Shown here piece after piece: positions 3,810-47,627 of a stretch of 64,000 nt of DNA. The notes below the pieces were generated by a model. That model was given only the letters and a program-made list of their open reading frames with translations, was not told the DNA's origin and did no database searches. A program made the translations under genes and the position numbers. Where the stretch lies: contig JBMNMW010000004.1 in assembly GCA_050953525.1 (NCBI GenBank), positions 1,539 to 65,538 of the forward strand, written 5' to 3'. Positions within the stretch are counted from its first letter, which is position 1. Every line of letters begins with the position of its first letter. This DNA comes from Candidatus Brevefilum sp. (GTDB lineage: Bacteria; Chloroflexota; Anaerolineae; Anaerolineales; Anaerolineaceae).

Positions 3810-4069
3810 CAGCGGTAGTCGAGTTTTTGTGGATAATCCAGTTTACATAAATGGAAGTATGATTCAATAACAAAAAAAATCTTTCTGAACAATGAGGATT
3901 TTACCATAGTCTTGTGTCTGCTTTCTTCGCATCGAGAAATGAGACCTCTATGGATTAATAATGATTGAACTGGATAAAATCTGGTAAAATTGACAGGGTT
4001 GAAATCGGGTTTCTGAAGGATTAATCAATAGAAGATTGTTTTCAACTCTGATTTCCAAAGGTGCTAAAT

Positions 4070-4708: not shown

Positions 4709-4736
4709 AAGACAATAAAAATTAGGAGAAAAAATA

Positions 4737-6802: not shown

Positions 6803-6818
6803 TCCAATCATACATCTT

Positions 6819-8156: not shown

Positions 8157-8174
8157 AGACGAAAAAGGTGAGGG

Positions 8175-9125: not shown

Positions 9126-9172
9126 CGTCTGGTTTATAAAATTTAATGAATCAAGAAATAAGGACTGGTTAA

Positions 9173-10255: not shown

Positions 10256-10299
10256 GATGGAATTTAAACCTTTGACGCCTGGAGTATTCTGAAATTCTG

Positions 10300-11352: not shown

Positions 11353-11367
11353 GGTTATCAGGAAACG

Positions 11368-13688: not shown

Positions 13689-14648
13689 TTAGAAACCGGT
13701 TACCACCCTTTTGTTGTGCCGGTGGATCTCCCACAGCTTGAAGATGCCTAAACGTTTGAAGAAATGATATTCAAGCCTTGGTAACAATGGAAGGCGGTCG
13801 TACAATTCTTTGAAATCCGGATCCTGCTCATTTATGAGAAGCAAGATCTCAACGAGGATCGGGTTATGTTTTTTCTGAATGAGTTTATGATATTGATAAT
13901 TTGTTTCCTGGTCGAAACCGTCGGTTACTCTGATTGATCTCTTCAGGTTGTTTACCCTGCGTTCATAGCTCTTGACATTTCTGTTCGTCCATGAGCCAGG
14001 CACATTGTACCGATATACGGAAGTGACCCGATCAAGATATTGGATCTTACCGTGAATTATGGCTAACAAAGGAACAGTCAGATCCCAGATTTGAGAATAA
14101 TGATACCAATCCGGTGTGTTCTGGTAAATGGATCGCTGAACCACTGCCGACCCCATATCGACCATACGCCCACCCATTGCGATCACATCTTTCATGTTGG
14201 CCACCGCATCGTGTTTCCGATACCGATGGATTTGAGGTTCCCGGTTGTCAGAGAAAATTCGTTTGGATGCGGCAAAGCACATGGATACGTCAGGATGCGC
14301 TTCCATAAAATCTACCTGGGTTTGCAGTTTCATTGGGTCGATCCAGTAATCGTCAGCCTCAAGATATGCGATATATTTCCCTTTTGCCCTGGGAATGTTA
14401 AAACAGGCATTGACTTCAAACCCCTGTGAAAATTGATTTTCTACCTGGAGGACCGGGAAGATCAAGTCGGGGTATTTTTGAGCATATTCTCGAATGATCT
14501 CTTGCGTACCATCACTTGATGCGTCATCATGGATGAGGATTTCATATTTGAAATCAACTTGCTGCATCAGGCAGCTCTCGAGAGCTTCCCGGATGAAAGG
14601 TTCCTGGTTAAAGGCAACAAGGCTGATACTGACTAACGGTTTTTCCAT
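13689..14648 (-). CDS. GT2 glycosyltransferase
   Basis: LVSISLVAFNQ, ILIHDDASSDGT, YIAYLEADDYW.DP.KLQ.Q. Confidence 0.9.
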   Translation of the reverse strand: MEKPLVSISLVAFNQEPFIREALESCLMQQVDFKYEILIHDDASSDGTQEIIREYAQKYPDLIFPVLQVENQFSQGFEVNACFNIPRAKGKYIAYLEADDYWIDPMKLQTQVDFMEAHPDVSMCFAASKRIFSDNREPQIHRYRKHDAVANMKDVIAMGGRMVDMGSAVVQRSIYQNTPDWYHYSQIWDLTVPLLAIIHGKIQYLDRVTSVYRYNVPGSWTNRNVKSYERRVNNLKRSIRVTDGFDQETNYQYHKLIQKKHNPILVEILLLINEQDPDFKELYDRLPLLPRLEYHFFKRLGIFKLWEIHRHNKRVVTGF

Positions 14649-16114
14649 AATATTCCCTTAATTTTCAATGTCAGGCTTGCGAAAAAATGTTTCAGAATGG
14701 ATAAGACTTCTTCCAGGTCCGGCGATTTCATAATCTTATTGACCAGGTAATAAGTTAATATACCCATAAAAACCTGAACAATTAATCGGATGAAGATAAT
14801 TTCGATGTTTAATTTCCCAATCAAGAAAACCACAATCCCCATGACCAGTGAGGCAAAAACAGGCATGAGAATATCCATAAACTGATCTCTCAGGCTGTAA
14901 TCAACGAGTTTTCCAGCAAAATAGCTGGCAGCGATGTGGGAAATATATGCAACAGCGATTTGTCCGTAAATCAATGCGAGGATTCCATGCTTGTAGGTTA
15001 GCAGGATCGCAATAGCAGTCATTGAATATTTGAATACTTCCAATCTGAGATGGTAATCTGAACGTCCTTTGATGCGAAGCATATTGTAATTTTGAACAAC
15101 CATTGGGAACAAAACCCCAATCGTACAAAGCAATTGGAAATAGGGGACGCTTGGTGCCCATTTTTCAGTCAGGAGAAATAGAAATAACGGTTTGGCTATA
15201 ACAATCAAGCCGATCATGATCGGAAGAATGATAAATGTAGATAATCGAATGGCTTTACTGTGGACTTTCTTCAGGGTGTCATTCTGATCCTGATAGGGTG
15301 AAAAAGATGAAAAGATGACCTGACCAAGCGCCATGCTTCCTGCCACTGAAACCGCTGATTCCATGGTTTGCGCCCTTGAATAGTAGCCGAGATCAGCCGC
15401 GGAATAGGTTTTGCCAATAAAAGTTTGATAAACGTTTTTAAATATCGTTTCGATGATACCGGCGATAAACAACCTTGAGCCGAATGAATACATGGATCGT
15501 AAAGATTGATATGAGAATTCGAGGGTTGGACGCCATTTGCTCAGAAACCACAATAACGCAACCTGTGCCAGGCTGAAAGTCAGACTCTGGACCACAAGGC
15601 TCCACACGCCCAGGCCGGCATAAGCTGCAATTATTCCGCCCACCCCGGAAAAAAGAACGGCGAAGATGCTCACAGTAAAATGCTTTTTGAAGTCAAGATT
15701 TTTCTTCAAAAGTGAGAGCTGAACAAGACTGAATGCATTGATGATCAGGGTCAGTGAAAGGACGCGGGTCAGAGATGTGAGGATTGGTTGATTGAAGAAT
15801 TTGGCAATGTAAGGAGCAAAAACGAAAAGGATGCCAAACAAAAAAATACCAATCAACAAATTAAAATAAAATATTGAGGATGAATCGGTTTCGGTTGCAT
15901 CCTTTTTCTGAATGAGGGCGCTTCCAAAGCCGCTATCGGATATGGATTGGGCAATGCTGGTAAATATGGCAAGCATTCCGATAAGTCCGAACTGAGAAGG
16001 CTCAAGAAGTCTGGCGAGGATAATCGAAATCACCATATGAATGACCTGTAAACTCAGGCGTTCGGTAACCGACCATGCCATATTGTTAATCGTTTTTTGT
16101 TTAATATTTGACAT
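14633..16114 (-). CDS. wzx: Wzx/MOP polysaccharide flippase (WzxC-like)
   Basis: 493 aa, many TM segments, ARLL.P..FGLIGML, DSGFGSALIQKK, LGYYSRAQ. Confidence 0.85.
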   Translation of the reverse strand: MSNIKQKTINNMAWSVTERLSLQVIHMVISIILARLLEPSQFGLIGMLAIFTSIAQSISDSGFGSALIQKKDATETDSSSIFYFNLLIGIFLFGILFVFAPYIAKFFNQPILTSLTRVLSLTLIINAFSLVQLSLLKKNLDFKKHFTVSIFAVLFSGVGGIIAAYAGLGVWSLVVQSLTFSLAQVALLWFLSKWRPTLEFSYQSLRSMYSFGSRLFIAGIIETIFKNVYQTFIGKTYSAADLGYYSRAQTMESAVSVAGSMALGQVIFSSFSPYQDQNDTLKKVHSKAIRLSTFIILPIMIGLIVIAKPLFLFLLTEKWAPSVPYFQLLCTIGVLFPMVVQNYNMLRIKGRSDYHLRLEVFKYSMTAIAILLTYKHGILALIYGQIAVAYISHIAASYFAGKLVDYSLRDQFMDILMPVFASLVMGIVVFLIGKLNIEIIFIRLIVQVFMGILTYYLVNKIMKSPDLEEVLSILKHFFASLTLKIKGILWKNR

Positions 16115-16162: not shown

Positions 16163-16403
16163 ATACCATTAACCAAAATTTAGCTGCTTAACATCGATGC
16201 GTTTTTTGTCATTTTTCTCTTTGACGGAAAACCGCGTGCAGAAATAATCCGATCTCTTTGAAGTGTTATTGGCTGTTCATGACCTGAAATGTGACCATTC
16301 GCTGGCGCTGATCATTATTTACCCCATACCAGCGCGACTCTCCATGACATGATGTTGGCGAACAAGGTGATATGATTATTTCGCCAATACCATTAACCAA
16401 AAT
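16163..16403. repeat. 17-bp exact direct repeat ATACCATTAACCAAAAT at 16163-16179 and 16387-16403
   Basis: Read directly. One copy is in the wzx upstream region; the other is in the last codons of the methyltransferase. Confidence 0.9.
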
Positions 16404-17056
16404 CCGCCAATTAATTTCGCTGCAAAATCTTGATTGATCGCATAAAGCGTTTTCCAGAGATAATCCCGCAGACCAGGATCTGGTTTGTCTACGTATCGGC
16501 TGACATAAGAATAGTTCACAATCTGATAGCCTGTGCCCTGTAAGGTGCCTAAGGCTGTTTCTTTATTGAAATGATGGAGATGACTGCGTATATATTCTTT
16601 ATTTTGCATGGTGCGGCTGCGCAGCAAGTAGTAGATGGTGATCTGCAGGGGGATGTAAAACACTTTATATTCCCCTTTGAGGCGCAATTTGCTCAGGAAA
16701 CCTAAATGGTCTCGAACGTGTGTAAACACATTAATGGCCATGACCACATCAAAATATTCATCCAATTTCAGGAGATCTTGCTGGTAATAATGGAGATTTT
16801 CCTTTTCGCGTAACTTGCAAAGAGAAAACCCCTCATCCTCTGTTTCGTACCCGGAAAAGATAACATTTTGGTCATAATGATTGGCTAAATTCGAAAGAAC
16901 GCTTCCATCTCCACAACCTATTTCGCCGATGGTTTTGGGGTTGACACGGTTTTCACTCAAAATATTGAAAATTTTCTCCGCTTTCCAGGGCGAATCTTCT
17001 TCGTGCCAATGACGTTTTTTAGGCATTACTGGTTCGTTTTCAATGTAATCTGTCAT
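16376..17056 (-). CDS. Class I SAM-dependent methyltransferase
   Basis: Motif I IGEIGCGDG, FDVVMAINVFTHV.DHL.FL. Confidence 0.85.
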   Translation of the reverse strand: MTDYIENEPVMPKKRHWHEEDSPWKAEKIFNILSENRVNPKTIGEIGCGDGSVLSNLANHYDQNVIFSGYETEDEGFSLCKLREKENLHYYQQDLLKLDEYFDVVMAINVFTHVRDHLGFLSKLRLKGEYKVFYIPLQITIYYLLRSRTMQNKEYIRSHLHHFNKETALGTLQGTGYQIVNYSYVSRYVDKPDPGLRDYLWKTLYAINQDFAAKLIGGFWLMVLAK

Positions 17057-17100
17057 TTTTATTAAATCCTTAACAGCCCGTATTGAACAGGAAATTCATC

Positions 17101-18306
17101 TTAATATTTCTTGATATCCGGGAACATGACAATAAACTCACCATCGTACTGTCCCTTCAGTGACTCGATAATGTAATCTTTGAAGTTGTGGGCAAGGATG
17201 AGAATGTAGTCAACTTTGTTTTGTTGGAGGTGTTCCCGAGAAACCACCTCAATGCCTGTTCCTGGAATGAACATACCCTGTTTATAAGGCGTATCATCCA
17301 CAACGAATTCGATCATTGAATCATCAATGCCGACCGAATTTAAAAATACACATCCTTTTGCTGCCGCGCCAAAACCTGCAATTCTCTTATGGTTGGAAAC
17401 GAGGTCGGAAATGTAATTTTTGAACTCATTGATCTTTTCAAGGGTTCGCCTGCCCCACCTGACGCAAAATTCCTCGGTTATTGTTTTTTCAAGGTTCAAA
17501 AATGATGGCAAGGTGATGTCAGGTTTTCTGCTCGCGGATTTCTTTGTCATCAAGACACGCAGTGTGCCGGCATGCATATCATGGTATGAAACGTTGACAA
17601 CCTTCAGCCCTTCCTGGTCGGAAAGGTCAAGGAGGTTTTGCAAACAGAAATAATAGACATGCTCATGATAAATCTGATCGTAATTGTCATTAAGTAGGGT
17701 GGTTAGAATGTATGGAAATTCGAGACACCAAACCCCATCATTGGCGAGGTTGCGAAAAACTCCCTTCACAAAGGATCGGATGGGCTCGGTATGCTGAAAG
17801 ACGTTGGTTGATGTGATCAGTTTTGCTGGTTGAGGAAAATCGGTGTTTTCGCCAAAATACTCATTGAAATAATCGATTCCAGCGGCATCGTTCATTTCTT
17901 TGAAACTTTGACTGGCATCCACATTGACAAATTTTAAATTGGGATTTTTCTTTTTAAATTCCAGAAGCAAAGAGCCATCATTACCGCCAATGTCTGCGAC
18001 AACATCTCCGGATTGAAGATCAACAAAATCCGTAAGATAATCGTACATCTGAGAACAATGCTGAAGATAGGGCTTATTAACGCTGGAGCGATACAGGTAG
18101 TTCCGGAACAATTTATCTTTATCAACAATATCAGTTAGACAGGTAAGCTTGCTTTCAGAAAATAGCTGGATCGCGAGTGGAAATTTTTCAACATTAAGCG
18201 ATTCTTCTTTTGTTGCGCTCAGATTGTTGACGAGGGGGACAGGTCCGAGGTTGAGGTATTCAACACTTCTTGAGCTGCCACTGATAGGGCAATTTGTTAT
18301 CTTCAT
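17101..18306 (-). CDS. NDP-sugar C-methyltransferase family protein (TcaB9/EryBIII-like architecture)
   Basis: LG..PL.NN, Y.Y.SS, DIGGNDGSLL, NVFQH, YDQIYHEHVYYF, C-terminal GFGAAAKG...VDDTPYKQG.FIPGTGI. The start was placed at the second ATG because the first lies too close to the -10 box. Confidence 0.8.
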   Translation of the reverse strand: MKITNCPISGSSRSVEYLNLGPVPLVNNLSATKEESLNVEKFPLAIQLFSESKLTCLTDIVDKDKLFRNYLYRSSVNKPYLQHCSQMYDYLTDFVDLQSGDVVADIGGNDGSLLLEFKKKNPNLKFVNVDASQSFKEMNDAAGIDYFNEYFGENTDFPQPAKLITSTNVFQHTEPIRSFVKGVFRNLANDGVWCLEFPYILTTLLNDNYDQIYHEHVYYFCLQNLLDLSDQEGLKVVNVSYHDMHAGTLRVLMTKKSASRKPDITLPSFLNLEKTITEEFCVRWGRRTLEKINEFKNYISDLVSNHKRIAGFGAAAKGCVFLNSVGIDDSMIEFVVDDTPYKQGMFIPGTGIEVVSREHLQQNKVDYILILAHNFKDYIIESLKGQYDGEFIVMFPDIKKY

Positions 18307-18317
18307 AGCAGGCATTT

Positions 18318-18345
18318 ATTATAACCATCCATAAGTCATTGTCAA
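18318..18345 (-). promoter_or_regulatory. Consensus sigma70 promoter for the C-methyltransferase
   Basis: Minus-strand TTGACA-16 bp-TATAAT, ending 11 nt before the ATG at 18306. Confidence 0.75.
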
Positions 18346-18774
18346 ACCTCAGATTTAGCGTCAAAATGCAGGTCATGATCTTGCATGATCTTTTTTAGGG
18401 AGAAAGATAATCGTTGAAAAATGATTATCGGGCACCAAATTCATGTGTTTATTATACCAATAAAACTGAATACCTTTAGCCAAGGAAACCCAGTCATCTT
18501 TCCACATGAATGATTTGTCTGACAAACTCATAAACTTCTCCGTGGTAAAAAATACGAATTGGTACTGCTCATTTCTCGTCAACGAAGTCATTTTGTATGA
18601 TTTTTTCAGGCATCTGTTCAATCATCTCCTTTGACAAGGGAAACACTATTTCTTTATGTTCACTGTCAATCTCAGTTATAATAACTTTGACCGAAATGAA
18701 TGTTCAATGGACAGAACATTGTTTTTTCCAACACCGTACAAAGGTCGTTGTTTGCAGCAATTCGAGGTGTTTTT

Positions 18775-19935
18775 ATGAAATCACGTCAATCATGGAAAAT
18801 TGGGATTATCGGCACAGGTTTTATTGGTAGTGGTTTGAAAAGAACGATTGACTCACTGCCAGATATGGATGTTTCAGCGATATTGACTCGGAGAGACTTG
18901 CAGGAATTCCCTGGTGAGTGCGTGTATACTCATTCCGTCCAGCAACTGATTGATAAAAGCGATCTGATCGTGGAGTGTAACGGGAATCCAATTTATGCAA
19001 CCGATGTCCTGTGCAGTGTTTTGGATGCTGGTCTTCCCGTGGTCACAAGTGATGCGGAGCTGCACGTCACGACAGGGAGCTACCTGGCATCCAAAGGCTT
19101 GATCACTGAGGCAGAAGGGGATCAGCCTGGCGCTTTGGCTGCTCTAAACAGAAGGCTTGTCGCAGTAGGTTTTAAGCCGCTTGTTTATGGTAATTTGAAG
19201 GGTTTTCTGAATCCCGATCCCACACAAGCGGAGATGAGGCACTGGTCAAAGGTTCAAGGAATATCGATTGAACAGGTCACAGAAGCTACAGATGGAACCA
19301 AAATTCAGATCGAACAGGTATTTGTTGCAAATGGACTGGGAGCAGTGATTCCAAAGCAAGGATTATATGGGTTGGAAAGCAAGGAAATAAATGAGGGCGC
19401 TCAGAAACTTGCGGCAATTGCAAAGCAAATTGGAAGTCCCATCAGCGACTATTTACTGTGCAGCCCAAAAGCAAAGGAACGATTCCCGGCAGGAGTTTTT
19501 ATTGTCGGAGAACATGAAAAAACTGAATCAGAAACCATGAATTATTTGAAGTTGGGGGAGGGGCCTTTTTACACACTGCTTCAAAATTTCCATTTTATTT
19601 ATTTGGATATACCATTGACCATCCGGGAGGTTCTTGATGGGAGGGGAGTTTTACTCAACAATGGCGCTCATCCAACTGCAAGCGTCGCGGCGGTCGCAAA
19701 ATGTGAACTGCCCTCCGGATCACCTATCACGCGCGAGGATCGACATTTTAAAGTCCGGGGAGAAGCGGTGCGTATCAAGGAAGCGCCCGGGCATGTTCCG
19801 ATAGGATTGCTTTATAACACAATTCTCAAACGCAAGGTTGAGCGGGGGCAGATGCTGCATTTTGACGATATCGAAATGGACTCATCGAAAGCGCTGGATG
19901 CCTGGTTGTTTACCCAATCACAGGCTGGATACTGA
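18775..19935 (+). CDS. NAD(P)-binding homoserine-dehydrogenase-like oxidoreductase with C-terminal SAF domain (COG4091-like)
   Basis: IGIIGTGFIG, ELHVTTG..L, EGDQPG, DGTK.QIEQ..VANG, GHVPIGLL, VERGQML.FDD. GAGGTG RBS before the ATG at 18775. Confidence 0.75.
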   Translation: MKSRQSWKIGIIGTGFIGSGLKRTIDSLPDMDVSAILTRRDLQEFPGECVYTHSVQQLIDKSDLIVECNGNPIYATDVLCSVLDAGLPVVTSDAELHVTTGSYLASKGLITEAEGDQPGALAALNRRLVAVGFKPLVYGNLKGFLNPDPTQAEMRHWSKVQGISIEQVTEATDGTKIQIEQVFVANGLGAVIPKQGLYGLESKEINEGAQKLAAIAKQIGSPISDYLLCSPKAKERFPAGVFIVGEHEKTESETMNYLKLGEGPFYTLLQNFHFIYLDIPLTIREVLDGRGVLLNNGAHPTASVAAVAKCELPSGSPITREDRHFKVRGEAVRIKEAPGHVPIGLLYNTILKRKVERGQMLHFDDIEMDSSKALDAWLFTQSQAGY

Positions 19936-19966: not shown

Positions 19967-20203
19967 TTAGTTTTCCAGTTTGCTTTCAATGCTTTTTCTC
20001 AGTTCTCCAACGTTGGAAAAATTCTGGATTTCGTTCTGTTGAAATTCGATATCAAATGCCAGCTCAATTGCAATCATCAGGTTGACATGAGAGAGTGAAT
20101 CCCATTCGTCGACATCATCCGCTGTCATTTCATCAAACAACTCGATGTCTTCATCGTCAAAAACCTCACGAAATACTTCTGTTAATTTTTCTGTTATAGC
20201 CAT
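19967..20203 (-). CDS. Acyl carrier protein
   Basis: 78 aa, acidic, phosphopantetheine site WDSLSHV. GGAG RBS lies inside the upstream gene's stop region. Confidence 0.92.
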   Translation of the reverse strand: MAITEKLTEVFREVFDDEDIELFDEMTADDVDEWDSLSHVNLMIAIELAFDIEFQQNEIQNFSNVGELRKSIESKLEN

Positions 20204-20206
20204 TAT

Positions 20207-21817
20207 TTACTCCATGGTGGATAGGTCGCCCGGGTCTGATCCTTCATATTGGGCACGTAAAACTCGGCGAAGGATTTTCCCGCTTTGATTTTTCGGAATA
20301 CGATCCGTGATAATAAATTCTGTCGGAGTGGCCGCAGTAGACACCTTGTTGGAAACATAGAGCCGGCATTTGAGTTCCAGGGCTTTGTCCCATACTTTAT
20401 TATCATGTAAAACAATAAAAGCGACGATCTTTTTATGCAAGAGGGTGTCATCCACGCCGATGACTGCTGTGTCGCCGATTTCCTCAATTTCAAGCAATGC
20501 GCTTTCAACCTCGAAGGGACCCACAAGGTGACCTGCGGTGTTGATCACATCGTCATAGCGGCTTACATACCAGAAATAGCCATCTTCGTCCATGAATGCC
20601 AAATCCCCGGTGAAGTAATAATCGCCATGAAATTTTTCTTCGTAAGCCTTTTTGTTAAAATAATATGTCCGGAACATCGAGTTCCAGCTCTTGCGCAGGG
20701 TTAAATAGCCCTGCGAACCTGCTGGCTGTTCTTGGTCATGATCATCAAGGATGAAAGGTTTAATCCCGGATCTTGGCTTTCCCATGGATCCAGGTTTAAC
20801 GTCCATACCCGGTCTGTTGGCAATCATGATACTGCCGGTTTCTGATTGCCACCAATTATCATATACTTCCGTCCCAAAGATTCTTTTACCCCAATGATAA
20901 ATCTCTGGATTTAAAGGCTCGCCAACGCTGTAAATACGTTTGAGGCTGTTTGAGCGCACAATGTCAAATTTATTCTCATCTTCCTGCATTAACATTCTTA
21001 ATGCGGTTGGTGCAGTATACCAGACCGTGACACCTTTTTCTTTAAGGATCTTCATCCAATTATCTGCATTGTACGAACCACCAAACTGGATGCTGGTTGC
21101 ATTCGTGCTCAATGGGGCAATGATGCCGTAAGAAAGACCGGTGATCCAGGCAGGGTCCGCTGTACACCAATACAGGTCATCAGGCTCAAGCACCATCACT
21201 TCTTTGAAGGATTGAACGATATCCAGGATAGCGGCATGAACGTGCAGTGCGCCTTTGGGTTTGCCGGTTGAACCCGATGTGTATTGTAAAAAGGCAGGTG
21301 TTTCTGCGTCCACCCGGTGATCATACTCAAAATTCCTGTCTGCCTGATGGGTTAACTTGATCAGACTCACCACAAATTCACTTGTGTGTTCTTCCTGATC
21401 GACTGTTAAAATTGCCTGTAAATGCGGCAATTGCTCTTTAATCGCCAATAATTTTCTGACCAGGCTCTTTTTTGTAATCACTATTTTTGCGTGACTATCT
21501 CCCAATCGATCGATAAGCGCTTCTGCACCCAGAGATGAAAACAAGATGCATGAAATTGCCTGGAGCTTCAATATGCCAAAAAAACTGGTGAACAAAATTG
21601 GACTGCGGGGCAGAAAAATGCTGACAACATCTTTTGCTTTAATGCCAAGATTTTTCAAGACATTTGCAATCTGATTTGATTCGGTTTCCAAATACTCGTA
21701 TGAATATTCAATTTCAGTCAGATCGTTTTGAATCCAGCGGATGACATTTTTATCGCAGCTCTCATTTTGGCAGTGTTTGGTAACTGCTTCAAATGCTATA
21801 TGATTTACTAACGTCAT
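20207..21817 (-). CDS. Acetate-CoA-ligase-like adenylating enzyme (AcsA short form)
   Basis: YTSGSTGKPKG, WCTADPAWITG, SVGEPLNPE, DNWWQSETG, TGD, PKNQSGKILRR. Confidence 0.85.
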   Translation of the reverse strand: MTLVNHIAFEAVTKHCQNESCDKNVIRWIQNDLTEIEYSYEYLETESNQIANVLKNLGIKAKDVVSIFLPRSPILFTSFFGILKLQAISCILFSSLGAEALIDRLGDSHAKIVITKKSLVRKLLAIKEQLPHLQAILTVDQEEHTSEFVVSLIKLTHQADRNFEYDHRVDAETPAFLQYTSGSTGKPKGALHVHAAILDIVQSFKEVMVLEPDDLYWCTADPAWITGLSYGIIAPLSTNATSIQFGGSYNADNWMKILKEKGVTVWYTAPTALRMLMQEDENKFDIVRSNSLKRIYSVGEPLNPEIYHWGKRIFGTEVYDNWWQSETGSIMIANRPGMDVKPGSMGKPRSGIKPFILDDHDQEQPAGSQGYLTLRKSWNSMFRTYYFNKKAYEEKFHGDYYFTGDLAFMDEDGYFWYVSRYDDVINTAGHLVGPFEVESALLEIEEIGDTAVIGVDDTLLHKKIVAFIVLHDNKVWDKALELKCRLYVSNKVSTAATPTEFIITDRIPKNQSGKILRRVLRAQYEGSDPGDLSTME

Positions 21818-21820
21818 TTT

Positions 21821-23098
21821 TTATTCTCCAATTTTCCAATAAGCGATATCATGAAATGCGACGACATTGTCTCCAACAATCAGGATATCATCAACTTTGT
21901 GGTTTGCAAGGAAATCTGATAAAGAAAAATTTCGAAAATACCTGAGGTCGATGCAATAAGTTTTGTGATAATGGGAAGCCAAAAGAGGATCCAAAGCATT
22001 CCGGAAAGAAGAACCAATAATTAACAGGTTTCGATCTGAGTCGTTTTCATAAGTGTATTCGATGAGGTCCGTTACATTTCCATAAAACGCATTAAAGTGA
22101 TTGGTGTACGGGATTGTGGCATATTCACCATCGAAATAGGCTTTCCTTGGATCGTTTTTCACAATCTGATCGCTCCACAGCATATCGTGAGGTGGAAAAT
22201 CAACAAGTTCGACTTTGAATACGTCCCCTTTGACGGGGTAAAAGGTTTTTCTTGCCATATACCCTAAAAAATTGATATCAGGAAACTCAATTATTTTTTG
22301 ATAATTTAGTTTCTCGGTGATGTCGGGATAATTTTCTGCAAGCATCTCATAAATCTCATCGTATGCTCGAAAGATACCATTCACATTCCAGTGATGATCG
22401 ACGCGATAATAATAATCTAAATGATCCTGCATGCCTGAAAGCATGAACTTTTTCAAAACCAAACCCTCCGGCAGATTGTCTTCAAAATACCTGATGCCCT
22501 GTCCATTGTCAGCGTCCGGAAAGAAGGGCGCCATGGGATGGTACTGAGAGTTGTGGAGGGTTTGGTGGTAATAAAGATAGAAATTTTGTTCAGGATGCGC
22601 CTGAATGAGGGCATTATAGTTATCAATTCGTTCGTCGATTATTTCTTGTGCTGAATCGTTGAATCGCGTCACCGGTTGGAGTAGTTGATTGTTTTCTGAG
22701 TCAAAATAAATACCAGTCACCATATCTGCAGGAAAAACCGGATCAGAAACAAAAGCATAGGGCAGGCTGATTATTTTTCGTTCAAGAGCTTTTGAAAATT
22801 CAATAATGGGCATGCGAAGAGGAAATTGATCACTTGCAGCGGTCTCAAATTTGCTCACAAAAGATGCATTGACATAAAGATCAATTAATCCTCTCACCCC
22901 TTCCCAAAGCGCACCTTTTTGTATGAGTTCAATCGATCGCTTCAGATTTGGGGCGCCAGTTGGACCCAACGCCACCAGTTGTCTGGCTTCGACCACAGAT
23001 GTTTCAGAGGAGGTTTTACCTTTTAGAAGCCAGTAACCAGGGACGGCTAACAATATGAGAAAAAAAAGGGTCAATAAATATTTTTGTAATTTACTCAA
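21821..23098 (-). CDS. DHHW-family (AlgJ/AlgX/DltD-like) membrane-anchored O-acyltransferase
   Basis: N-terminal TM, YYRVDHHWN (D-x-H) and IIGSSF (G-x-S). TTG start. Confidence 0.82.
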   Translation of the reverse strand: MSKLQKYLLTLFFLILLAVPGYWLLKGKTSSETSVVEARQLVALGPTGAPNLKRSIELIQKGALWEGVRGLIDLYVNASFVSKFETAASDQFPLRMPIIEFSKALERKIISLPYAFVSDPVFPADMVTGIYFDSENNQLLQPVTRFNDSAQEIIDERIDNYNALIQAHPEQNFYLYYHQTLHNSQYHPMAPFFPDADNGQGIRYFEDNLPEGLVLKKFMLSGMQDHLDYYYRVDHHWNVNGIFRAYDEIYEMLAENYPDITEKLNYQKIIEFPDINFLGYMARKTFYPVKGDVFKVELVDFPPHDMLWSDQIVKNDPRKAYFDGEYATIPYTNHFNAFYGNVTDLIEYTYENDSDRNLLIIGSSFRNALDPLLASHYHKTYCIDLRYFRNFSLSDFLANHKVDDILIVGDNVVAFHDIAYWKIGE

Positions 23099-23197
23099 GA
23101 AAAATAACCTTTGATTAGTAAAGAGATTGGTTAATTTCCATCATCTTTTACTTTCGATGGGTGCAAAAAACTCAAAACCGAATCGCCTCCAATATGG

Positions 23198-24475
23198 TCA
23201 GGGCTTGATCATCCACAGCTCTGCATCCAGATAAACAATGTCCGCGTCACCAACAATCAGAATGTCTTCAATTTGATATTCATCCAAAAAGTTTGATAAG
23301 GCGAAATCTGGTACCTGCCTGAGATCGACAAAGTATGTGTGTTGATACTGGGTGGCGATCAATGCGACAAGCGGTCTGGCGTAAGAATTTCCTATGATGA
23401 GGATGTTCCTGTCCGCGCCTGTCTGACATTCATACTCTAACAGGGCATTTTGAGTGCCGAAATAGTTCCCATAGTGGCTGGTATAGGGAAGTGTTGAATA
23501 ATTGCCAGCCAGGTAATCATCGCGATCATCATATTTTCCTTCAACGCCACCATCTTTGACGACACATTCTGGGAATTCAGCTTCAAATCCGATGAATTGA
23601 TCTCCAGGGATGGGATACAGCGTTTGGCGCCCGAGCGTGCCGATGAATTCAATCCCCGGGAAGGTAACCATCAATTCAGGCTCAAGTTTTTCTGGCATAC
23701 CAGGATAGTTTTCAGATAGCATTTCATAGATATCGCGATAACCAGTTAATATACCGTCCGTGTTCCAGTGGTGATCCGTTCGATAAAAATAGGTGAGATG
23801 GTCATTGAAACTTTCTAATGTTAGTTTACCCAATTTGATTTTCTTGGGTAAGTGGCCCTGAAGGTATTCAAAAGTTTTTCCCTGATCCGCATTTGCAAAA
23901 ATAGCATTCAACGGATTGGTTTGAGAAAACGCCACGGTCTCAATATAATAGATATAAAACGATTTATCCGGGTATTTAGAAATAAGTTCATGGTAATTTG
24001 CAAGGCGCTGGTCAATGGTTAAAAAATCGTTTTCACTCAAAGTGTGCGGCGGGTTTATCAGTGCGTTTTCTTTGAGGGCGATATAAAGATCTGATGTCAT
24101 GTCCGCAGGGATAAAATTATCCGGGGTGAAACCATAGACAGCGCCAATGATTCGGCGGTCCAACGATTTGGAAAAGTCAATTAAGGGCATTCGTAGAGGA
24201 AATTGATCGGTTGCGGCACCATCAACTTTCCTTTGTAAAGAACCCCCGGTGAACAGGTCCCAAACCAGGGATGCCGCCATTTTTATTTTGCCTTGTTGAA
24301 TAAAACTCATCGCAATTTTAAGGGTGGGATAGTTTTTTTCGGGCAAACCCAGCACCCGACCTTCAACGAGGGACATCTGTGGAGATGGCTTTCCCCTAAA
24401 TGCCCAGAATGCGGGAACTGAGAGAAGGATGAGGAAGAAAAATATTAACACAAACGATTGGAATTTTTTCAACAT
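23198..24475 (-). CDS. DHHW-family (AlgJ/AlgX/DltD-like) O-acyltransferase, paralog 2
   Basis: N-terminal TM, FYRTDHHWN, IIGNSY. Shares DQFPLRMP and FPADM segments with its neighbour; TGATG-coupled to the MBOAT. Confidence 0.82.
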   Translation of the reverse strand: MLKKFQSFVLIFFFLILLSVPAFWAFRGKPSPQMSLVEGRVLGLPEKNYPTLKIAMSFIQQGKIKMAASLVWDLFTGGSLQRKVDGAATDQFPLRMPLIDFSKSLDRRIIGAVYGFTPDNFIPADMTSDLYIALKENALINPPHTLSENDFLTIDQRLANYHELISKYPDKSFYIYYIETVAFSQTNPLNAIFANADQGKTFEYLQGHLPKKIKLGKLTLESFNDHLTYFYRTDHHWNTDGILTGYRDIYEMLSENYPGMPEKLEPELMVTFPGIEFIGTLGRQTLYPIPGDQFIGFEAEFPECVVKDGGVEGKYDDRDDYLAGNYSTLPYTSHYGNYFGTQNALLEYECQTGADRNILIIGNSYARPLVALIATQYQHTYFVDLRQVPDFALSNFLDEYQIEDILIVGDADIVYLDAELWMIKP

Positions 24476-25893
24476 CAGAATTCAGCGTACATAAAGGCGG
24501 TGAAACCTTTGGAGACAATAAAGGTCAGGGTGAAAATGAACAATGCGATATAAGCAACATCTAATATGACCAGTGAAATCCCCCCCTTTTTCTTTGCTTT
24601 TTCCGCAAGGTTGTGCATCAGGGGCAGGCTGAACAATACTGCTGGGATGATGAAAGGTATGTAAAAAAGGATATTGAGGGATCTAAAAGTGACAGAATTG
24701 CTCCAGCCATTCATGCCAAACAAAGCGCCTAAGAAGGGTCCCCAGGAGCGGATGTCGGTAATCCTGAAGAACACCCAACCGATGATGATTAATACCAAAG
24801 AATAGATATGCTGGATGATCGGGTTGATTTTCTTTAACTTTTTCCCAAAGCCGGAGGCTTCAATTGCAAGGATAAAGCCATAATATGCCCCCCAAATCAC
24901 ATAGTTCCAGCTAGTGCCATGCCAGAGTCCCGTTAAAAGGAAAACGATCAGGAGGTTGGATTGCTGCCGAAGAAACCTCTCTTTCTTTCGAGCAAATTCA
25001 AGAGGAATGAACAGATAGGTGCGAAACCATGCCCCCAACGTGATATGCCAACGGCGCCAAAAATCCGAGATACTCCGACTGATGTAGGGAAAATTGAAAT
25101 TTTCAGGCAGATTGAACCCTAGCATTTGACCAACACCAATCGCCATATCGGTATAGCCTGAGAAATCCAAATAAAGCTGCAAGGTGTAGGCGATAATGCC
25201 AAACCAGGCTACACCGGCACCCATTTCACGATAATTTGCAGAAAAAACCTGGCTTGTCGCCAAATGCAAGCTGTCCGCTAAGATAACTTTTTTTGCCAGA
25301 CCCCCAATAAACCTTCTGGCGCCTTGCATAATATCCAGAGGGATGAATTTTCTGGTGATTAAGTCGTCCTTGACCTGGGTAAACCGGGTGATTGGACCTT
25401 GCAGTAACTTGGGAAACATGATCAGATAAGCGCTAAAATTGATCAGGTTGTTCTCAGCATCGTTGACCTGATTATAAATATCGAGAATGTAGGAGATGCC
25501 GGAAAAAGTGAAGAAAGAAATACCTAACGGGAGTGCAGGTTCCGAATAATTGATTGAGATAGAAAAAATAGCTTCGATGATATCAAAGAAAAAGCCTGTA
25601 TATTTATAAAACCCTAAAAGTAATAAATTCAGGATCACCCCGGTCCACATGAGCGATTTTGCTGATTTTTCTTCCTTTGTGCTGTAAACCTTTCCTATTT
25701 TTCGACCGATAAAGTAATTCAGAAGGATCGAAAGAAGCAATACATGGATGTGAGTAGGGTCTGACCAGGCAAAAAATGCAAAAGATAAAATGACGAGCAA
25801 GGCGTTTTGCCAGGCTCTTTTTGGAAGGACATAAAAAAGTATCAGGGTAATTGGAAGGAATAAAAATATGAAGGTGATGCTTGAAAATGGCAT
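24475..25893 (-). CDS. MBOAT O-acyltransferase, AlgI/DltB family
   Basis: LPLGISFFTF, FPKLLQGPI.R, YLDFSGYTDMA, ENFNFPY, FWRRWHITL, catalytic His in TGLWHG, C-terminal FMYAEF. Confidence 0.93.
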   Translation of the reverse strand: MPFSSITFIFLFLPITLILFYVLPKRAWQNALLVILSFAFFAWSDPTHIHVLLLSILLNYFIGRKIGKVYSTKEEKSAKSLMWTGVILNLLLLGFYKYTGFFFDIIEAIFSISINYSEPALPLGISFFTFSGISYILDIYNQVNDAENNLINFSAYLIMFPKLLQGPITRFTQVKDDLITRKFIPLDIMQGARRFIGGLAKKVILADSLHLATSQVFSANYREMGAGVAWFGIIAYTLQLYLDFSGYTDMAIGVGQMLGFNLPENFNFPYISRSISDFWRRWHITLGAWFRTYLFIPLEFARKKERFLRQQSNLLIVFLLTGLWHGTSWNYVIWGAYYGFILAIEASGFGKKLKKINPIIQHIYSLVLIIIGWVFFRITDIRSWGPFLGALFGMNGWSNSVTFRSLNILFYIPFIIPAVLFSLPLMHNLAEKAKKKGGISLVILDVAYIALFIFTLTFIVSKGFTAFMYAEF

Positions 25894-26037
25894 TTATCCT
25901 CTTTCTGAACAAAAATCCCTTTTCTGGTTTACAGCAAGTTGATATTATACCCAAAACGACGCGAATTGGTCACTTCGCCTGGTTTTGCGCTTCCAGAACT
26001 TCTTTTATTTAAAGGATTTAATTCGATTGAAGAGTAA

Positions 26038-28044
26038 TTAATATCCCAACCAGTTCAGAGCACTTTTGACGTAATTTCTCCACACACTTGGATAGTGGGT
26101 GCCATACCAGTTGTCGACAAATTTGACGTTCGCACCCTTGGTCTGCATTGGTTTACGGATCGCGTTGGCGCCACTCTGATAAGCCAGGGGCATTGTCAAT
26201 TGTGTACCATCACGCAAAAGCACAAAGGGATAAGGAGATCCTGGCCCCGAATCTTCCTGCCTTCCGATATAAAGATAAAATTTAACATTTTTTGGAATGG
26301 TAGAGCTGGTAAAGGATCCAATGTATTTCACGAATTGATTGGTTTCCAGCCAGTAAGGTAGATATGGAGGCAAAATTCCGCCGCCTTCTGCCAGCCAAAC
26401 GGCTGGTGACATTGCCATTATCTTCGAAAAAACATCCGGTCGTTTGAGCCCTGCATAAAGCGAAAACAAAGCAACTCGACTTCCACCTCCGATGCCGGTA
26501 TGTTCTCGACCAGGCAGGGTGCGGTAGTTGGAATCAATGATAGGCTTCAGATCATCAATAATGAAGCTCAATAGTTGGTTTCCTTTTCCATTTACGACGT
26601 CGGTTGTGTTGTTGAGCCAATTATCCATATTATAGTTGGTCCAGGGCATATACTCATCGTAGGGATGAAAGGAATCAAATTCAATTGCGACTGCTATAAT
26701 TCCCTTACCAGTTGTCTCGTAAATCGTATTGAGAGTTTCATCAAATTTCCAATCAAGAAGGTCTGAAATGTTGGCACCAGCTTCTGCACCGAAAACATGC
26801 TGTGCATCAAGAAGGTAAATAACCGGATAGGATTGCGTTGTTCTAAAGTAATCCGGCGGCAAATAGACCCAAATCCGTCTTGCCCTGTTGTGGAATGGAA
26901 TTGTAATATCAAAATGATCCAAACCCTTATTAAAAAATATTGGGAAGTAAGTTTCATAATCCAAGGACCGGGTCAATAAAGGCTGTGGCAGGTTCTGCGC
27001 CCAGGCGTCAAGGTTGAAATTCCCGTTATTAATAGCCTTTTCTGGTAAACCATTTGCTAACAATGCTTCTACCAATGCTCGGATGCCCTCAAGGTAGGCT
27101 TGCGGAAATGATATCTTGTTCCCACGACTATCATTGACGACAGGTCGGACATCTACTTCCATTGTTCGTCGCGCATCATCCACCTCAATCGCAAAGGACA
27201 CACCCTCGGGCAGACTCCGCTCATTGATCAGGTTAAGCAAATGATTATTGGACAGCCAGGTGCCTCCCCTTTCGGCAAACCAGATTGTGGGTGATAGCGC
27301 ACCGACCTTTGAATAGACATCAGGCCTCATCAAGCCGGCGTAAAGAGAGAAAAGCCCCCCCATCTCATAGCCGCCAATAGTCGTGTTTTCTCGACTCTGT
27401 AAGGTCCGATAGCGTTGATCGATCTCCGGCTTGAGTGTATCCACCATAAAATCAAGGTAAGCATCGGCGTCTCCGCCTGCACTGCGATTTGCCTCATAGG
27501 GATCCACCCACAGGTACATATGATTGTTCTCCCAGGGTCCGTACTCTTCCCAATGATGAATGGGGTCAGAGAACAACCCCACGATGATGGCATTTGATGC
27601 AGCTACGTCTGTAAAGAATGGGTACAGGCTCTCGTCTAAAAACCAGGACTCTCCATCAATCCTATTTTTTATGAAGAACTCTTCTGCCCCCTGAAGGTAG
27701 AAGACAGGATAAGCCTGTTGCGAGGTGAAATAATCAGGCGGAAGTAAGATGACCACAGATTTATCTCGCCCATCAAACTGGGGCATTTGGATCGAAAATA
27801 ATTCAATCTGATTGTTTTCAATCGGGTGCAGCTCATCACGCTGTGATGTGAGCATACTCAAACTGCTGCCTGTGTCAGACTCGTTTATGTATTGAAAGAG
27901 CTGATCAAACTCGGCTGATGGGTCGGCTGGATCATCCCCCGCCTGAACCGCATTTGGAACAAGCGAAAAACACAAAACAAACAATAGCAAACCAGTAAAA
28001 ATTTTTCTGAAATATTTATTTTCTTGATGAGGTATTAAACGCAT
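26038..28044 (-). CDS. Secreted tandem alpha/beta-hydrolase (two PF00756-type esterase domains)
   Basis: Signal peptide ending AVQA. Two copies of (V/W)..LPPDY.....YPV.Y...LKP.ID..YRT...RE.T.IGG....LFSLYAGL.RPDV.SK...SP. Confidence 0.8.
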   Translation of the reverse strand: MRLIPHQENKYFRKIFTGLLLFVLCFSLVPNAVQAGDDPADPSAEFDQLFQYINESDTGSSLSMLTSQRDELHPIENNQIELFSIQMPQFDGRDKSVVILLPPDYFTSQQAYPVFYLQGAEEFFIKNRIDGESWFLDESLYPFFTDVAASNAIIVGLFSDPIHHWEEYGPWENNHMYLWVDPYEANRSAGGDADAYLDFMVDTLKPEIDQRYRTLQSRENTTIGGYEMGGLFSLYAGLMRPDVYSKVGALSPTIWFAERGGTWLSNNHLLNLINERSLPEGVSFAIEVDDARRTMEVDVRPVVNDSRGNKISFPQAYLEGIRALVEALLANGLPEKAINNGNFNLDAWAQNLPQPLLTRSLDYETYFPIFFNKGLDHFDITIPFHNRARRIWVYLPPDYFRTTQSYPVIYLLDAQHVFGAEAGANISDLLDWKFDETLNTIYETTGKGIIAVAIEFDSFHPYDEYMPWTNYNMDNWLNNTTDVVNGKGNQLLSFIIDDLKPIIDSNYRTLPGREHTGIGGGSRVALFSLYAGLKRPDVFSKIMAMSPAVWLAEGGGILPPYLPYWLETNQFVKYIGSFTSSTIPKNVKFYLYIGRQEDSGPGSPYPFVLLRDGTQLTMPLAYQSGANAIRKPMQTKGANVKFVDNWYGTHYPSVWRNYVKSALNWLGY

Positions 28045-28287: not shown

Positions 28288-30468
28288 TTATTGGTAATAA
28301 AATATTCTCCAGTGGATAAAGACTTCCGAGTACCTTGAAAGATACATCCACAAACCCCCGCTAAAATAGATTATTATCGCCAGAATGATCGTGATCCGCC
28401 GCAAAACGAAATTGCGCAGTTTAAGAAAATAATAGACCATCAGGGTGATGAGTGCACCTATGACTGGTAAATGGTACCTTCCTGAGACCGCGTAGTGACG
28501 AAAACCATATTCCAAATCCTGTTTGTAGTTGAATACAAACATGAAGCCCATAAAACCGACCAGGATGTAAATTAACAGGTTTGCAACCGGGTCTTTGAGC
28601 TTCCAGTAGCGAACCAAACACACAAACCACCAGAACAGCAAGAGACTGTGGAGCGCAGTAGCCAAAACTGGCACAAAAGTTTTGTGTGAGAAGATCCCCC
28701 AGATTGATTGAATGTTAAATGCAATCCAAAAGTCAAAGGCATAATTGATGGGATTCTGAAGGCTGTCACGCTTGAACCATAACCCCGGCAAACTGACTTG
28801 ATTGTAAAATTCGCTTCTGTAGGAAAAGGATGGACAATTTCCAATCCCCTTTATTTGATTGCATGTGGGGGTTGGCCTTGAATAGCGGATGAGATTGACC
28901 CCGTATAGCCCTATAAAAAGCGACAATGCGATGACAAACACGATCGAGAGCAGGATATTGGTCCGATTAAAGTCGAGTTTGATCTTCCGGAAATTTGTTA
29001 AACTAAAAAATAGCCAGGCTAAAAATATGATCAGGGTCATCAACAGGAATTGTTCTTTCGCAAGAGAGCCCACGATGACCCAAAAGCCAGTCAGAGTGGA
29101 ATGACGGACGAAATCCTCTTTTTTATAGAGGGAGACCAGATGGTAGATTGTTGCTGCACCTGCCAGGTTCATCAAGTTGTCGTAGCTGATTCCACCGCTG
29201 ATGAACACAAAAGTTATGATATTGGAGAGGAGAAACGCAGCCAAAACTCCGGCATAGGGGTTGTTTGTCGCTTTTTTTGCCAGCTTGTACATATATATGA
29301 TGGTGAAAGACGAAATAAAGACGGAGGTAAAACGCCACAGGTGATCTGACCGCATTGGGCTGGATGGAAATGCAAATCTGAATATCTTGTGAACTGCACC
29401 GTAGATCCAATATGCCAGGTAGGGCTGGTCTGTGACGACATAAGACGTGCCCGATTGCTCTTCAGGTATGCCCCAGGTCTCGCTATATCTGTATGCATAA
29501 TGCCTGTGAGGAGCCTGATCGGGTTGCCCGGAGGTGTACACCATAAACAGGCTAAAGGTGATAAAGTACAGGATCGTTAAGGTTAATAAGATAATGTATA
29601 AGGGCGGCTTTGTAATTTGAATTTGTTTAAAAAACGGCAACTGAATTTTTTTGTGCAGATTCCTTTTAGGGGAGTAGGTGAAGAGGAGTTCGGTGAACCC
29701 GAATAAGAAAAGGGCGAGAAAGGCTGCAGAAAAAGCAACACTCAATACCTTAAGTCCCAAAAACCATGTTTGATCCCAGGGTGAGGTGATCCTGACGCCA
29801 GCATCAAAACCATCGGTAATATTGATTTCATTGCCAATTTGATCTTCTGCAGCCTGGTCAAATTGGATAACTGATGGAACGCCATTGACCGTTACGCCAA
29901 GCCTGCCATCGGGCACAGGCTCCCGGATAAAGATCGTCATGCCTGGAACATTCCAGTAACGCATCACCCGTCTGTAAAACGATAGGATTGTTCCGCTTTT
30001 ACATTCGCCCGAATTGATCACAATAGGATAGTGGTCTTGTTCAAACCCTTCAGGAGAAAATAAATGATTTGTCATCGAATGACTCAGCTGGGGGACGACA
30101 AGTGGGGTTTCTCCGTCATCAGCGTCGAAACAGATCTCAACTTGATGGGTTGTGGGAACAGACCAAAAGTAATTGGAGCTGACAGTGATGGCCACGACTA
30201 AAAAAGCACTTAAAAGAAGAACAAAAACAAGATTCCGGGTCTTTTTAAGCTTTTTCCAAAAGGGAAGGATAATTGATTTCAGCGCAAATAAGGCCAAAAT
30301 GAAAAGAACAACACATGAAATGGAAAAAGCAAGGAGCTTTGCTTCCCGATCTTGTTGATAGAAGGATGGGAAATTTAATAAAGCAACCGCAGACAGCCCC
30401 ATGGCAAACAATAAGGATGCTAAAGCCGATAGAAAATTATTTAAAAACTTGGATTTGTTGGTGCTCAT
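28288..30468 (-). CDS. GT-C (PMT_2/DUF2142-like) membrane glycosyltransferase, type A, fused to an N-terminal extracytoplasmic domain
   Basis: SGQPDQAPH after a TM helix, GGISYDNL, SLAKEQ, SGRYHLP. The N-terminal ~260 aa is homologous to ORF 33607..34452. Confidence 0.7.
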   Translation of the reverse strand: MSTNKSKFLNNFLSALASLLFAMGLSAVALLNFPSFYQQDREAKLLAFSISCVVLFILALFALKSIILPFWKKLKKTRNLVFVLLLSAFLVVAITVSSNYFWSVPTTHQVEICFDADDGETPLVVPQLSHSMTNHLFSPEGFEQDHYPIVINSGECKSGTILSFYRRVMRYWNVPGMTIFIREPVPDGRLGVTVNGVPSVIQFDQAAEDQIGNEINITDGFDAGVRITSPWDQTWFLGLKVLSVAFSAAFLALFLFGFTELLFTYSPKRNLHKKIQLPFFKQIQITKPPLYIILLTLTILYFITFSLFMVYTSGQPDQAPHRHYAYRYSETWGIPEEQSGTSYVVTDQPYLAYWIYGAVHKIFRFAFPSSPMRSDHLWRFTSVFISSFTIIYMYKLAKKATNNPYAGVLAAFLLSNIITFVFISGGISYDNLMNLAGAATIYHLVSLYKKEDFVRHSTLTGFWVIVGSLAKEQFLLMTLIIFLAWLFFSLTNFRKIKLDFNRTNILLSIVFVIALSLFIGLYGVNLIRYSRPTPTCNQIKGIGNCPSFSYRSEFYNQVSLPGLWFKRDSLQNPINYAFDFWIAFNIQSIWGIFSHKTFVPVLATALHSLLLFWWFVCLVRYWKLKDPVANLLIYILVGFMGFMFVFNYKQDLEYGFRHYAVSGRYHLPVIGALITLMVYYFLKLRNFVLRRITIILAIIIYFSGGLWMYLSRYSEVFIHWRIFYYQ

Positions 30469-44916: not shown

Positions 44917-45021
44917 ATTTTTGTTGTACCATGCTACAAATTAATAAATTTAAAAAGCATTCGAGACCGACAAACGACTCATCGAGTGCAAAGAGTTCGT
45001 TAAAACATATTTTTAATGAGG

Positions 45022-47524: not shown

Positions 47525-47627
47525 AAGGTTCGTTTTGATAGTGAAAAGACGATGAATATTATAACAGAGATAAACAGATTGTGAATGACACATCTGCGAA
47601 GTCCGGACATTATATTGAGTGTGTAAA

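Follow-up and report, generated by a model that had tools for sequence, protein, structure and literature searches.

The window analysed here, a stretch of 64,000 nucleotides from contig JBMNMW010000004.1 of Candidatus Brevefilum sp., contains five co-directional open reading frames (ORFs) on the minus strand at 19967-25893, encoding in order of transcription an MBOAT membrane acyltransferase, two paralogous DHHW proteins, an adenylate-forming ligase of the acetyl-coenzyme A (CoA) synthetase clade and an acyl carrier protein (ACP). Coordinates of these genes and of the other features discussed are presented in Table 1. The MBOAT stop and DHHW1 start codons overlap by one base (TGATG at 24475), and gaps of 3 nt separate the DHHW2 stop from the ligase start (TAAaaaATG) and the ligase stop from the ACP start (TAAataATG). 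A first-pass annotation of this DNA, made from the sequence alone, had described a tightly coupled operon of these five families with just such junctions, and both the layout and the family assignments were borne out, the latter by Pfam, NCBIfam and fold searches. That annotation made no mention of the 99 nt between DHHW1 and DHHW2, or of the TTG start of DHHW2. The nucleotide composition is unremarkable.

Table 1. Genes and other features of the window, with the evidence on which each assignment was made.
Feature	Position	Strand	Evidence
MBOAT membrane acyltransferase, 472 aa	24475-25893	-	PF03062 2.7e-22
DHHW1, membrane-anchored PatB1-like (SGNH-like) O-acyltransferase, 425 aa	23198-24475	-	fold match and motif
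DHHW2, DHHW1 paralogue, 425 aa, TTG start	21821-23098	-	sequence and Pfam
Acs-clade adenylate-forming ligase, 536 aa; predicted acetate (short-acid):ACP ligase	20207-21817	-	NCBIfam and PDB matches
ACP, 78 aa; predicted phosphopantetheine attachment at Ser36 (WDSLSH)	19967-20203	-	NCBIfam and PDB matches
Sigma-70-like promoter candidate, 51 nt upstream of MBOAT start	25944-25973	-	GTGACC-18-TATAAT, 10/12 matches
Secreted tandem esterase-D-like protein, 668 aa; candidate de-O-acylase	26038-28044	-	PF00756 6.9e-41
Wzx-type flippase	14633-16114
rmlABCD	44041-47593
ABC exporter ATPase gene, adjoining rmlABCD	47628-48443

The ligase carries the Pfam domains AMP-binding and AMP-binding_C. While its best NCBIfam match was an acetate--CoA ligase model (NF003313), the score of 625 bits lay under the cut-off of 729, and its scores with TIGR02188 (433 bits, cut-off 725) and with the amino-acid adenylation domain model (149 bits, cut-off 317) were also below threshold; no DltA model was present among the 25 best of the 105 NCBIfam matches listed. 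The best PDB match was the AcsA structure 9G79 (572 aa; E 5e-131, approximately 50% identity), with the alignment starting from residue 44 of 9G79, and the ligase aligned throughout with S. enterica Acs. Earlier assignment of the enzyme to the acetyl-CoA synthetases rather than to DltA had been based on three motifs, all of which are present (TADPAWITG at 219, SVGEPLNPE at 297 and DNWWQSETG at 320), and the acetate--CoA ligase models which score best agree with it.

For comparison of individual residues, S. enterica numbering was mapped on an alignment of 119 members of the ligase clade and 74 canonical AcsA sequences. The acyl pocket of the window ligase (I225, T226, V298 and W323) corresponds to S. 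enterica V310, T311, V386 and W414, and the Ile, Thr and Val residues are invariant in the clade. We take M. thermautotrophicus Acs, which prefers acetate, to have exactly this Ile/Thr/Val/Trp pocket, and because of it acetate is the best guess for the substrate of the window ligase. The tryptophan of this pocket (Trp416/Trp414) has a gatekeeper role in Acs (PMC10455477).

With regard to the thiol acceptor, Arg584 of Acs touches only the 3'-phosphate of CoA and discriminates against dephospho-CoA, Arg526 steadies the thioester-forming conformation, and Arg191 touches both phosphates (PMC10455477). None of the 119 clade members has Lys or Arg at the position equivalent to Arg584, where Ser, Ala or Gln is found instead, but 73 of the 74 canonical AcsA sequences do. 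In the window ligase Ser489 stands at this position and Leu431 at that of Arg526. Leucine is found at the latter position throughout the clade (119/119); it was considered as a carrier-protein signature and rejected, since 19 of the 74 canonical sequences have it as well. The clade is also without approximately 38 N-terminal residues of AcsA. Compared with AcsA as represented by NF003313 and 9G79, the window ligase shares the ANL fold, the core ANL motifs, the hinge Asp, the acetate pocket and the catalytic lysine (Lys514), but differs in scoring below the family cut-off, in its shorter N-terminus, in having Ser for Arg584/Lys and Leu for Arg526, and in the ACP gene next door; the CoA-binding arginine set of the family (Arg191, Arg526, Arg584) is not intact. 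The phosphopantetheine arm of an ACP is without 3'-phospho-adenosine, so that systematic loss of the Arg584 equivalent, in perfect correlation with a neighbouring ACP gene, is as would be expected for a switch of acceptor from CoA to ACP. On these residues the ligase appears to have made that switch.

Generic ACP models of NCBIfam matched the carrier protein at 1e-5 to 1e-6, with the serine of the DSL motif at residue 36. Its best PDB match, and closest solved relative, was the putative ACP GmACP3 of Geobacter metallireducens (2LML; E 9e-19 over residues 4-76), in which the WDSLSH motif is identical. DltC structures gave E-values of 0.56-0.62, and no DltC match was obtained with NCBIfam. By its sequence the window ACP is a GmACP3-like specialised ACP, within a family that comprised 372 clusters at 50% identity when searched exhaustively at E ≤ 1e-10. 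GmACP3 is reportedly called a 'specialized ACP', with a role in lipopolysaccharide biosynthesis said to have been proposed; we know of no link to an MBOAT described for it.

The MBOAT scored 167.8 bits with the DltB model TIGR04091 (cut-off 375), and its residues 4-357 align to the DltB structures 6BUG and 8JEM, with His283 and His325 opposite DltB His289 and His336. Beyond residue 357 there follow approximately 115 residues with three hydrophobic segments, and the protein then ends in F467-M-Y469-A-E-F472. An FxYxxF ending was found in 44 of the 49 MBOATs which adjoin a member of the ACP family. This motif is the acyl shuttle, carried by DltX in Dlt but forming part of the MBOAT itself, on extra helices, in PatA, AlgI and their relatives; PatA auto-acetylates the FxYxxF tyrosine from acetyl-CoA, and PatB then uses the acetyl-tyrosine (PMC12148441). 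The window MBOAT has both features common to the MBOATs of MBOAT-SGNH pairs (PatA/PatB, PatA1/PatB1, AlgI/J/X, WssH/I), namely the conserved histidine and the C-terminal FxYxxF.

DHHW1 and DHHW2 share 41% identity, and both gave weak matches to PF14286 just under the Pfam gathering cut-off. An AlphaFold2 model of DHHW1 built with 39 sequences (predicted local distance difference test score 89.7) matched B. cereus PatB1 best in Foldseek (5V8D/5V8E; E 4e-16, TM-score normalised to target length 0.74-0.77), followed by the DHHW protein 4NZK and then by AlgX and AlgJ (E 2e-6 to 8e-5), while sequence identity between DHHW1 and PatB1 is 16-18%. R232, D234, H235, H236, S364 and D384 are invariant in the 39 sequences, and a putative catalytic triad of Asp234, His236 and Ser364 can be assigned in DHHW1, the residues of which are found in both paralogues (in DHHW2 the DHHW motif is at 234 and IIGSS at 360). 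Each paralogue has an N-terminal membrane helix (residues 2-26 in DHHW1). Both have the character of the extracytoplasmic SGNH-like partner with a Ser-His-Asp triad that accompanies such MBOATs.

To establish whether the arrangement recurs, loci were collected by a contig look-up for ligase homologues and a metagenome scan with the ACP, followed by tblastn; they are designated L001 onwards. The contig scan with the ligase was dominated by canonical AcsA of Bacillales and Dehalococcoidia, so that only L001 and L002 were informative and the remainder served as a control set. An ACP of 60% identity or more, with 1.7 kb or more of sequence upstream of it, was present in 28 loci, and in 24 of these an Acs-like ligase lies immediately upstream of the ACP; where at least 6.3 kb of upstream sequence was available an MBOAT followed by one to three DHHW genes precedes this pair in 16 of 19. 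The order MBOAT, DHHW (one to three), ligase, ACP was found in L001, L081, L084-L089, L091, L093, L094, L099, L104, L108-L110 and L115, with MBOAT identities of 50-77% among the loci in which it is preserved. An ACP of the window type within 8 kb of a canonical AcsA was found at none of 78 loci. The L086 module lies by itself, away from any cluster of glycosyltransferase genes. In L002, from the Bacillota metagenome-assembled genome (MAG) UR.bin48 (7457-12008), the order is ligase, ACP, MBOAT (ending FMYFRF) and a membrane-anchored 362-aa protein with a GGSN motif; the ligase belongs to the same clade and has a Phe gatekeeper and Ser at the Arg584 position. Some of the recurring loci are near-identical, and the number of independent lineages is approximately ten. 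The arrangement, for which the first-pass annotation had proposed a survey, is not due to chance and recurs in many independent metagenomic and MAG loci.

The number of DHHW genes varies among these loci. A single gene is present in L001, L084 and L087, among others, two in the window, L085, L091, L093, L094 and L099, and three paralogues lie between MBOAT and ligase in L110 (997-8240). The route from MBOAT through the DHHW proteins to a glycan, as put forward earlier, is supported by the two histidines, the FMYAEF shuttle and the PatB1 fold match, but an obligatory serial relay through two DHHW enzymes was down-weighted, as relatives carry one or three copies. Such variation argues for parallel transferases, and the two paralogues most likely act in parallel on different positions or sugars.

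A second class of loci bears on the step from ACP to MBOAT. Approximately 40 contigs of high GC content from soil and rhizosphere (L124-L167) encode homologues of the ACP with 47-57% identity within a strictly conserved set comprising an MBOAT (ending FVYRAF), a 373-aa protein, the ACP, an optional MaoC dehydratase and short-chain dehydrogenase/reductase (SDR), and a protein with an FkbH domain (TIGR01686, 300.8 bits, above cut-off). Examples are L137 (5473-11280) and L131 (5425-11287), and a variant without MaoC and SDR was also found. FkbH enzymes, known from methoxymalonyl- and tetronate-type pathways, charge an ACP directly with a glyceryl unit derived from glycolysis. As the FkbH product is ACP-tethered and the MBOAT lies beside that ACP, an acyl-ACP donor is implied, and the class lends independent support to the ACP-to-MBOAT step. 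On its gene content it looks like a carrier-dependent glycan O-acylation system with a glycerate-derived acyl group. With respect to the MBOAT-adjacent proteins of L002 (362 aa) and L137 (373 aa), no homology to the DHHW profile was detected with hhalign and no Pfam or NCBIfam match was obtained; their GGSN and GASN motifs, respectively, suggest an SGNH or DltD-like protein.

We consider it reasonably probable that the operon encodes a carrier-protein-dependent system for O-acylation of an extracytoplasmic glycan. From the gene order, its conservation, the motifs and the folds described above the following route can be proposed, in which the chemistry of every step and the identity of both the acyl group and the acceptor glycan are predictions from sequence. 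In the cytoplasm the Acs-like ligase would adenylate acetate, which is the best guess although another C2-C3 acid is possible, and would pass the acyl group from acyl-AMP to the phosphopantetheine thiol on Ser36 of the ACP and not to CoA. Acyl-S-ACP would dock at the cytoplasmic face of the MBOAT, where the catalytic His325, with His283, would transfer the acyl group across the membrane to Tyr469 in the MBOAT's own FxYxxF motif. Ser364 of the DHHW triad (Asp234/His236/Ser364) would then accept it and esterify hydroxyls of a surface polysaccharide, and the neighbouring secreted esterase may trim the modification. The acyl-Tyr469 intermediate, which should be placed between the ACP and DHHW steps, is a refinement of the pathway in the first-pass annotation. 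The island in which the operon lies suggests that the acceptor is a secondary cell-wall or capsular polysaccharide, while the stand-alone module of L086 would be compatible with peptidoglycan or another constant polymer.

The other three propositions of the earlier pathway also gained independent comparative support. Loading of the ACP by the ligase is favored by their translational coupling, by their adjacency in 24 of 28 loci, by persistence of the pair where an MBOAT is missing (L083, L105, L112) and by the absence of such an ACP from the 78 AcsA loci. An acetate-like substrate accords with the four Acs pocket positions retained in the window ligase, and the bypass of CoA with the clade-wide loss of the Arg584 equivalent against its near-constancy as Lys or Arg in canonical sequences. 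The description of the whole as a hybrid pathway held, with a refinement: the ligase-ACP half is Dlt-style, but the membrane half, with its fused tyrosine shuttle, resembles PatA1/PatB1 or AlgI and not DltB/DltX/DltD.

In Dlt, an ANL ligase charges a small carrier protein from which the MBOAT, the FxYxxF tyrosine and an SGNH-type protein are served in turn (PMC12148441). The window system has the same logic of ligase, carrier, MBOAT, tyrosine and transferase, but it departs from DltXABCD in all four components (DltA, DltC, DltB with DltX, and DltD): the ligase is of the Acs clade, the ACP is GmACP3-like, the tyrosine motif is fused to the MBOAT where Dlt has it on the DltX microprotein, and the transferase is DHHW/PatB1-like, with no match to a DltD model in Pfam or NCBIfam for the window proteins. 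The predicted acyl group is also a short fatty acid and not an amino acid. The membrane half is closest to PatA1/PatB1 and PatA2/PatB2, which O-acetylate secondary cell wall polysaccharide in B. cereus and B. anthracis; these likewise combine an MBOAT with a membrane-anchored PatB1-type partner, in a monoderm-type host and with their genes in a surface polysaccharide context. To our knowledge the PatA1/PatB1 systems have no dedicated ligase or carrier protein, whereas the window adds a translationally coupled ligase and ACP. Fused FxYxxF, conserved histidine and partners of the AlgX/AlgJ fold are also common to the Gram-negative PatA/PatB (peptidoglycan) and AlgI/AlgJ/AlgF/AlgX (alginate) systems. 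The PatA/PatB and Alg pathways use acyl-CoA and hence no carrier protein (PMC12148441), whereas the window encodes a carrier together with a ligase from a clade without one CoA-binding residue, and the two are conserved in the operon. Taking these comparisons together, the window most likely holds a membrane half of the PatA1/PatB1 type that receives its acyl groups from a ligase and carrier working in the manner of Dlt.

Several observations weigh against carrier-fed acylation, or against parts of it, and some of these lend themselves to other explanations. The gatekeeper equivalent to Trp414 is Phe in 87 of the 119 clade members and Trp in the window ligase and 31 others, and given the Phe gatekeepers acetate may not be the substrate throughout the clade. 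A second account would keep the same route with an acyl group other than acetate, for example propionate, glycolate, lactate or 3-hydroxypropionate. Besides the Phe residues, it can draw on the ligase score below the acetate--CoA ligase equivalog cut-off (625 against 729 bits), on clade-specific changes near the pocket (Gly to Ala at 223, Val to Ile at 225, Thr to Ser at 325) and on the FkbH class, which is predicted to deliver a glycerate-derived acyl group. The window ligase itself, however, has Trp323 and the full Ile/Thr/Val/Trp pocket, and the changes from Gly to Ala and from Val to Ile shrink that pocket; for this operon we regard a different acyl group as unlikely, though it is the strongest of the alternatives.

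Other observations concern CoA. Lys122 is kept where canonical AcsA has Arg or Lys, probably in the Arg191/194 region although the alignment there is uncertain, the pantetheine-tunnel residues Ala269 and Gly429 are also kept, and the ligase may consequently form some acyl-CoA. PatA takes acetyl-CoA directly (PMC12148441), and by analogy the window MBOAT could do likewise. These points, together with approximately 50% identity to the AcsA of 9G79 and the presence of all core ANL motifs and Lys514, would allow the ligase to be a dedicated acetyl-CoA synthetase serving an ordinary PatA/AlgI-type MBOAT, with the ACP unrelated or regulatory. We judge this improbable: the Arg or Lys which binds the 3'-phosphate is gone clade-wide and Leu replaces Arg526, the translational coupling of ligase and ACP is near-universal while no canonical AcsA locus has the ACP (0/78), and the FkbH class points to this ACP family as feeding MBOATs.

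The coupling of the ligase-ACP pair to the MBOAT is also not without exceptions. Three lineages (L083, L105/L106 and L112) have ligase and ACP but no MBOAT, and their acyl-ACP may have other acceptor enzymes; conversely, L123 (3613-8228) retains MBOAT, ACP and two DHHW genes, but only approximately 316 nt take the place of the ligase, an apparent natural loss of that gene. Ligase-plus-ACP pairs for N-acyl sugar decorations exist, as in the tetronate genes of V. cholerae O1, and acylation of a nucleotide-sugar or lipid-linked intermediate in the cytoplasm, with the MBOAT and DHHW proteins working independently and brought together only by a shared glycan island, would suit both the large polysaccharide island of the window and the MBOAT-less pairs beside other membrane proteins, but it is the least probable account considered, as the MBOAT/DHHW/ligase/ACP order with its junctions of 1-3 nt is kept at 50-77% MBOAT identity, occurs in L086 with no glycosyltransferases nearby and, rearranged, in another phylum (L002), and comes with no gene in the operon for a cytoplasmic acyl-ACP-dependent transferase. 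Finally, a phosphopantetheinyl transferase did not turn up in the window, where no search aimed at one was made, and the evidence for transcription is thin: metatranscriptome contigs of low depth touch all five genes and give weak evidence of operon expression, being assembled sequences that are possibly contaminated with DNA.

The Dlt route (carrier and DltX shuttle) and the PatA/PatB route (acetyl-CoA and fused shuttle), both elucidated recently, have been presented as alternatives. By joining a Dlt-like donor half to a PatA/PatB-like membrane half, the operon is a naturally occurring case in which to test whether a carrier can feed an MBOAT of the PatA/AlgI type, and its ligase offers candidate features for thiol-acceptor specificity in Ser489, Leu431 and the shortened N-terminus. 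Whether carrier-fed glycan acylation by MBOATs with a fused tyrosine shuttle forms a widespread, unrecognised class with interchangeable loaders (Acs-derived or FkbH), perhaps with AT3 enzymes included, seems to us evenly balanced; if it does, Dlt would be one specialised branch, and the rule that only Dlt uses a carrier while other MBOAT-SGNH systems use acyl-CoA would be wrong. No description of an ACP-linked PatA/AlgI-type MBOAT was found in the literature searched, the coverage of which was incomplete, and searches of the same scope on FkbH with MBOAT, on O-acetylation from acetyl-ACP and on the V. cholerae tetronate genes yielded no relevant papers. In combination with the FkbH loci, the operon gives a starting point for predicting which unusual O-acyl groups decorate the envelopes of soil bacteria and of uncultured Chloroflexota, and a possible use would be the CoA-independent installation of chosen short acyl groups on polysaccharides.

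Some loci of the collection show other gene combinations. In L132 (6223-11966) an FkbH-like protein, an ACP of the same family, an aldo/keto reductase, a 509-aa ORF and an AT3 (Acyl_transf_3) acyltransferase occur together, and the ACP family may also feed AT3 enzymes. In L083 (10001-11862) the ligase-ACP pair adjoins genes for membrane proteins of 591 and 595 aa with weak PMT_2-like matches and DUF6798, LPG_synthase_TM and ATP-grasp genes, and after the pair in L105 and L112 comes an unannotated membrane protein of 556 aa.

The window is a large surface-polysaccharide island with many glycosyltransferases and C- and O-methyltransferases. Its sequence matches metagenomes of anaerobic digesters and bioreactors, and the closest named relative in the contig scan with the ligase was an Anaerolineaceae MAG. 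A Wbp-like set at 4061-10255 (hexapeptide acetyltransferase, DegT aminotransferase, GFO oxidoreductase, UDP-sugar dehydrogenase and 2-epimerase) suggests a pathway to 2,3-diacetamido-mannuronic acid, a 2,3-diacetamido uronic acid, and two different glycans may be encoded (4061-10255 and 44041-50135).

Upstream of the operon, the promoter candidate was picked out by its consensus match alone, and the region has no excess of sites of this kind; an Rfam scan gave no regulatory RNA near the operon. The adjoining esterase-D-like protein has a signal peptide and two PF00756 stretches, and an esterase gene again lies beside the MBOAT in L084 and L087-L089. Ape1 is a de-acylase in PatA/PatB clusters, and by analogy the window esterase may be the matching de-O-acylase. 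In its first domain the sequence GYEMG has Glu at the position expected for the nucleophilic Ser, and the second domain retains Ser (GGSRV). Further upstream, a polytopic membrane protein of 726 aa (28288-30468, minus strand) gave no Pfam or NCBIfam match and may be a GT-C-like or polymerase-like enzyme. Proteins of 726-727 aa, likened to it by size alone, are encoded at the equivalent place ahead of the esterase and MBOAT genes in L081 and L084, and L123 has a 672-aa ORF directly upstream of the MBOAT.

Just downstream of the ACP, 16376-19935 encodes a methyltransferase, a C-methyltransferase (Methyltransf_14) and a convergent DRL-like oxidoreductase (PF21135), which may form a pathway to a branched or methylated sugar. 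The same Pfam annotations were found in L081 and DRL-like genes in L084, while ORFs in L096 and L123 match these genes by size, N-terminus and position alone. The sole RNA gene detected within the window is a tRNA-Gly (CCC) at 97-168 on the minus strand.

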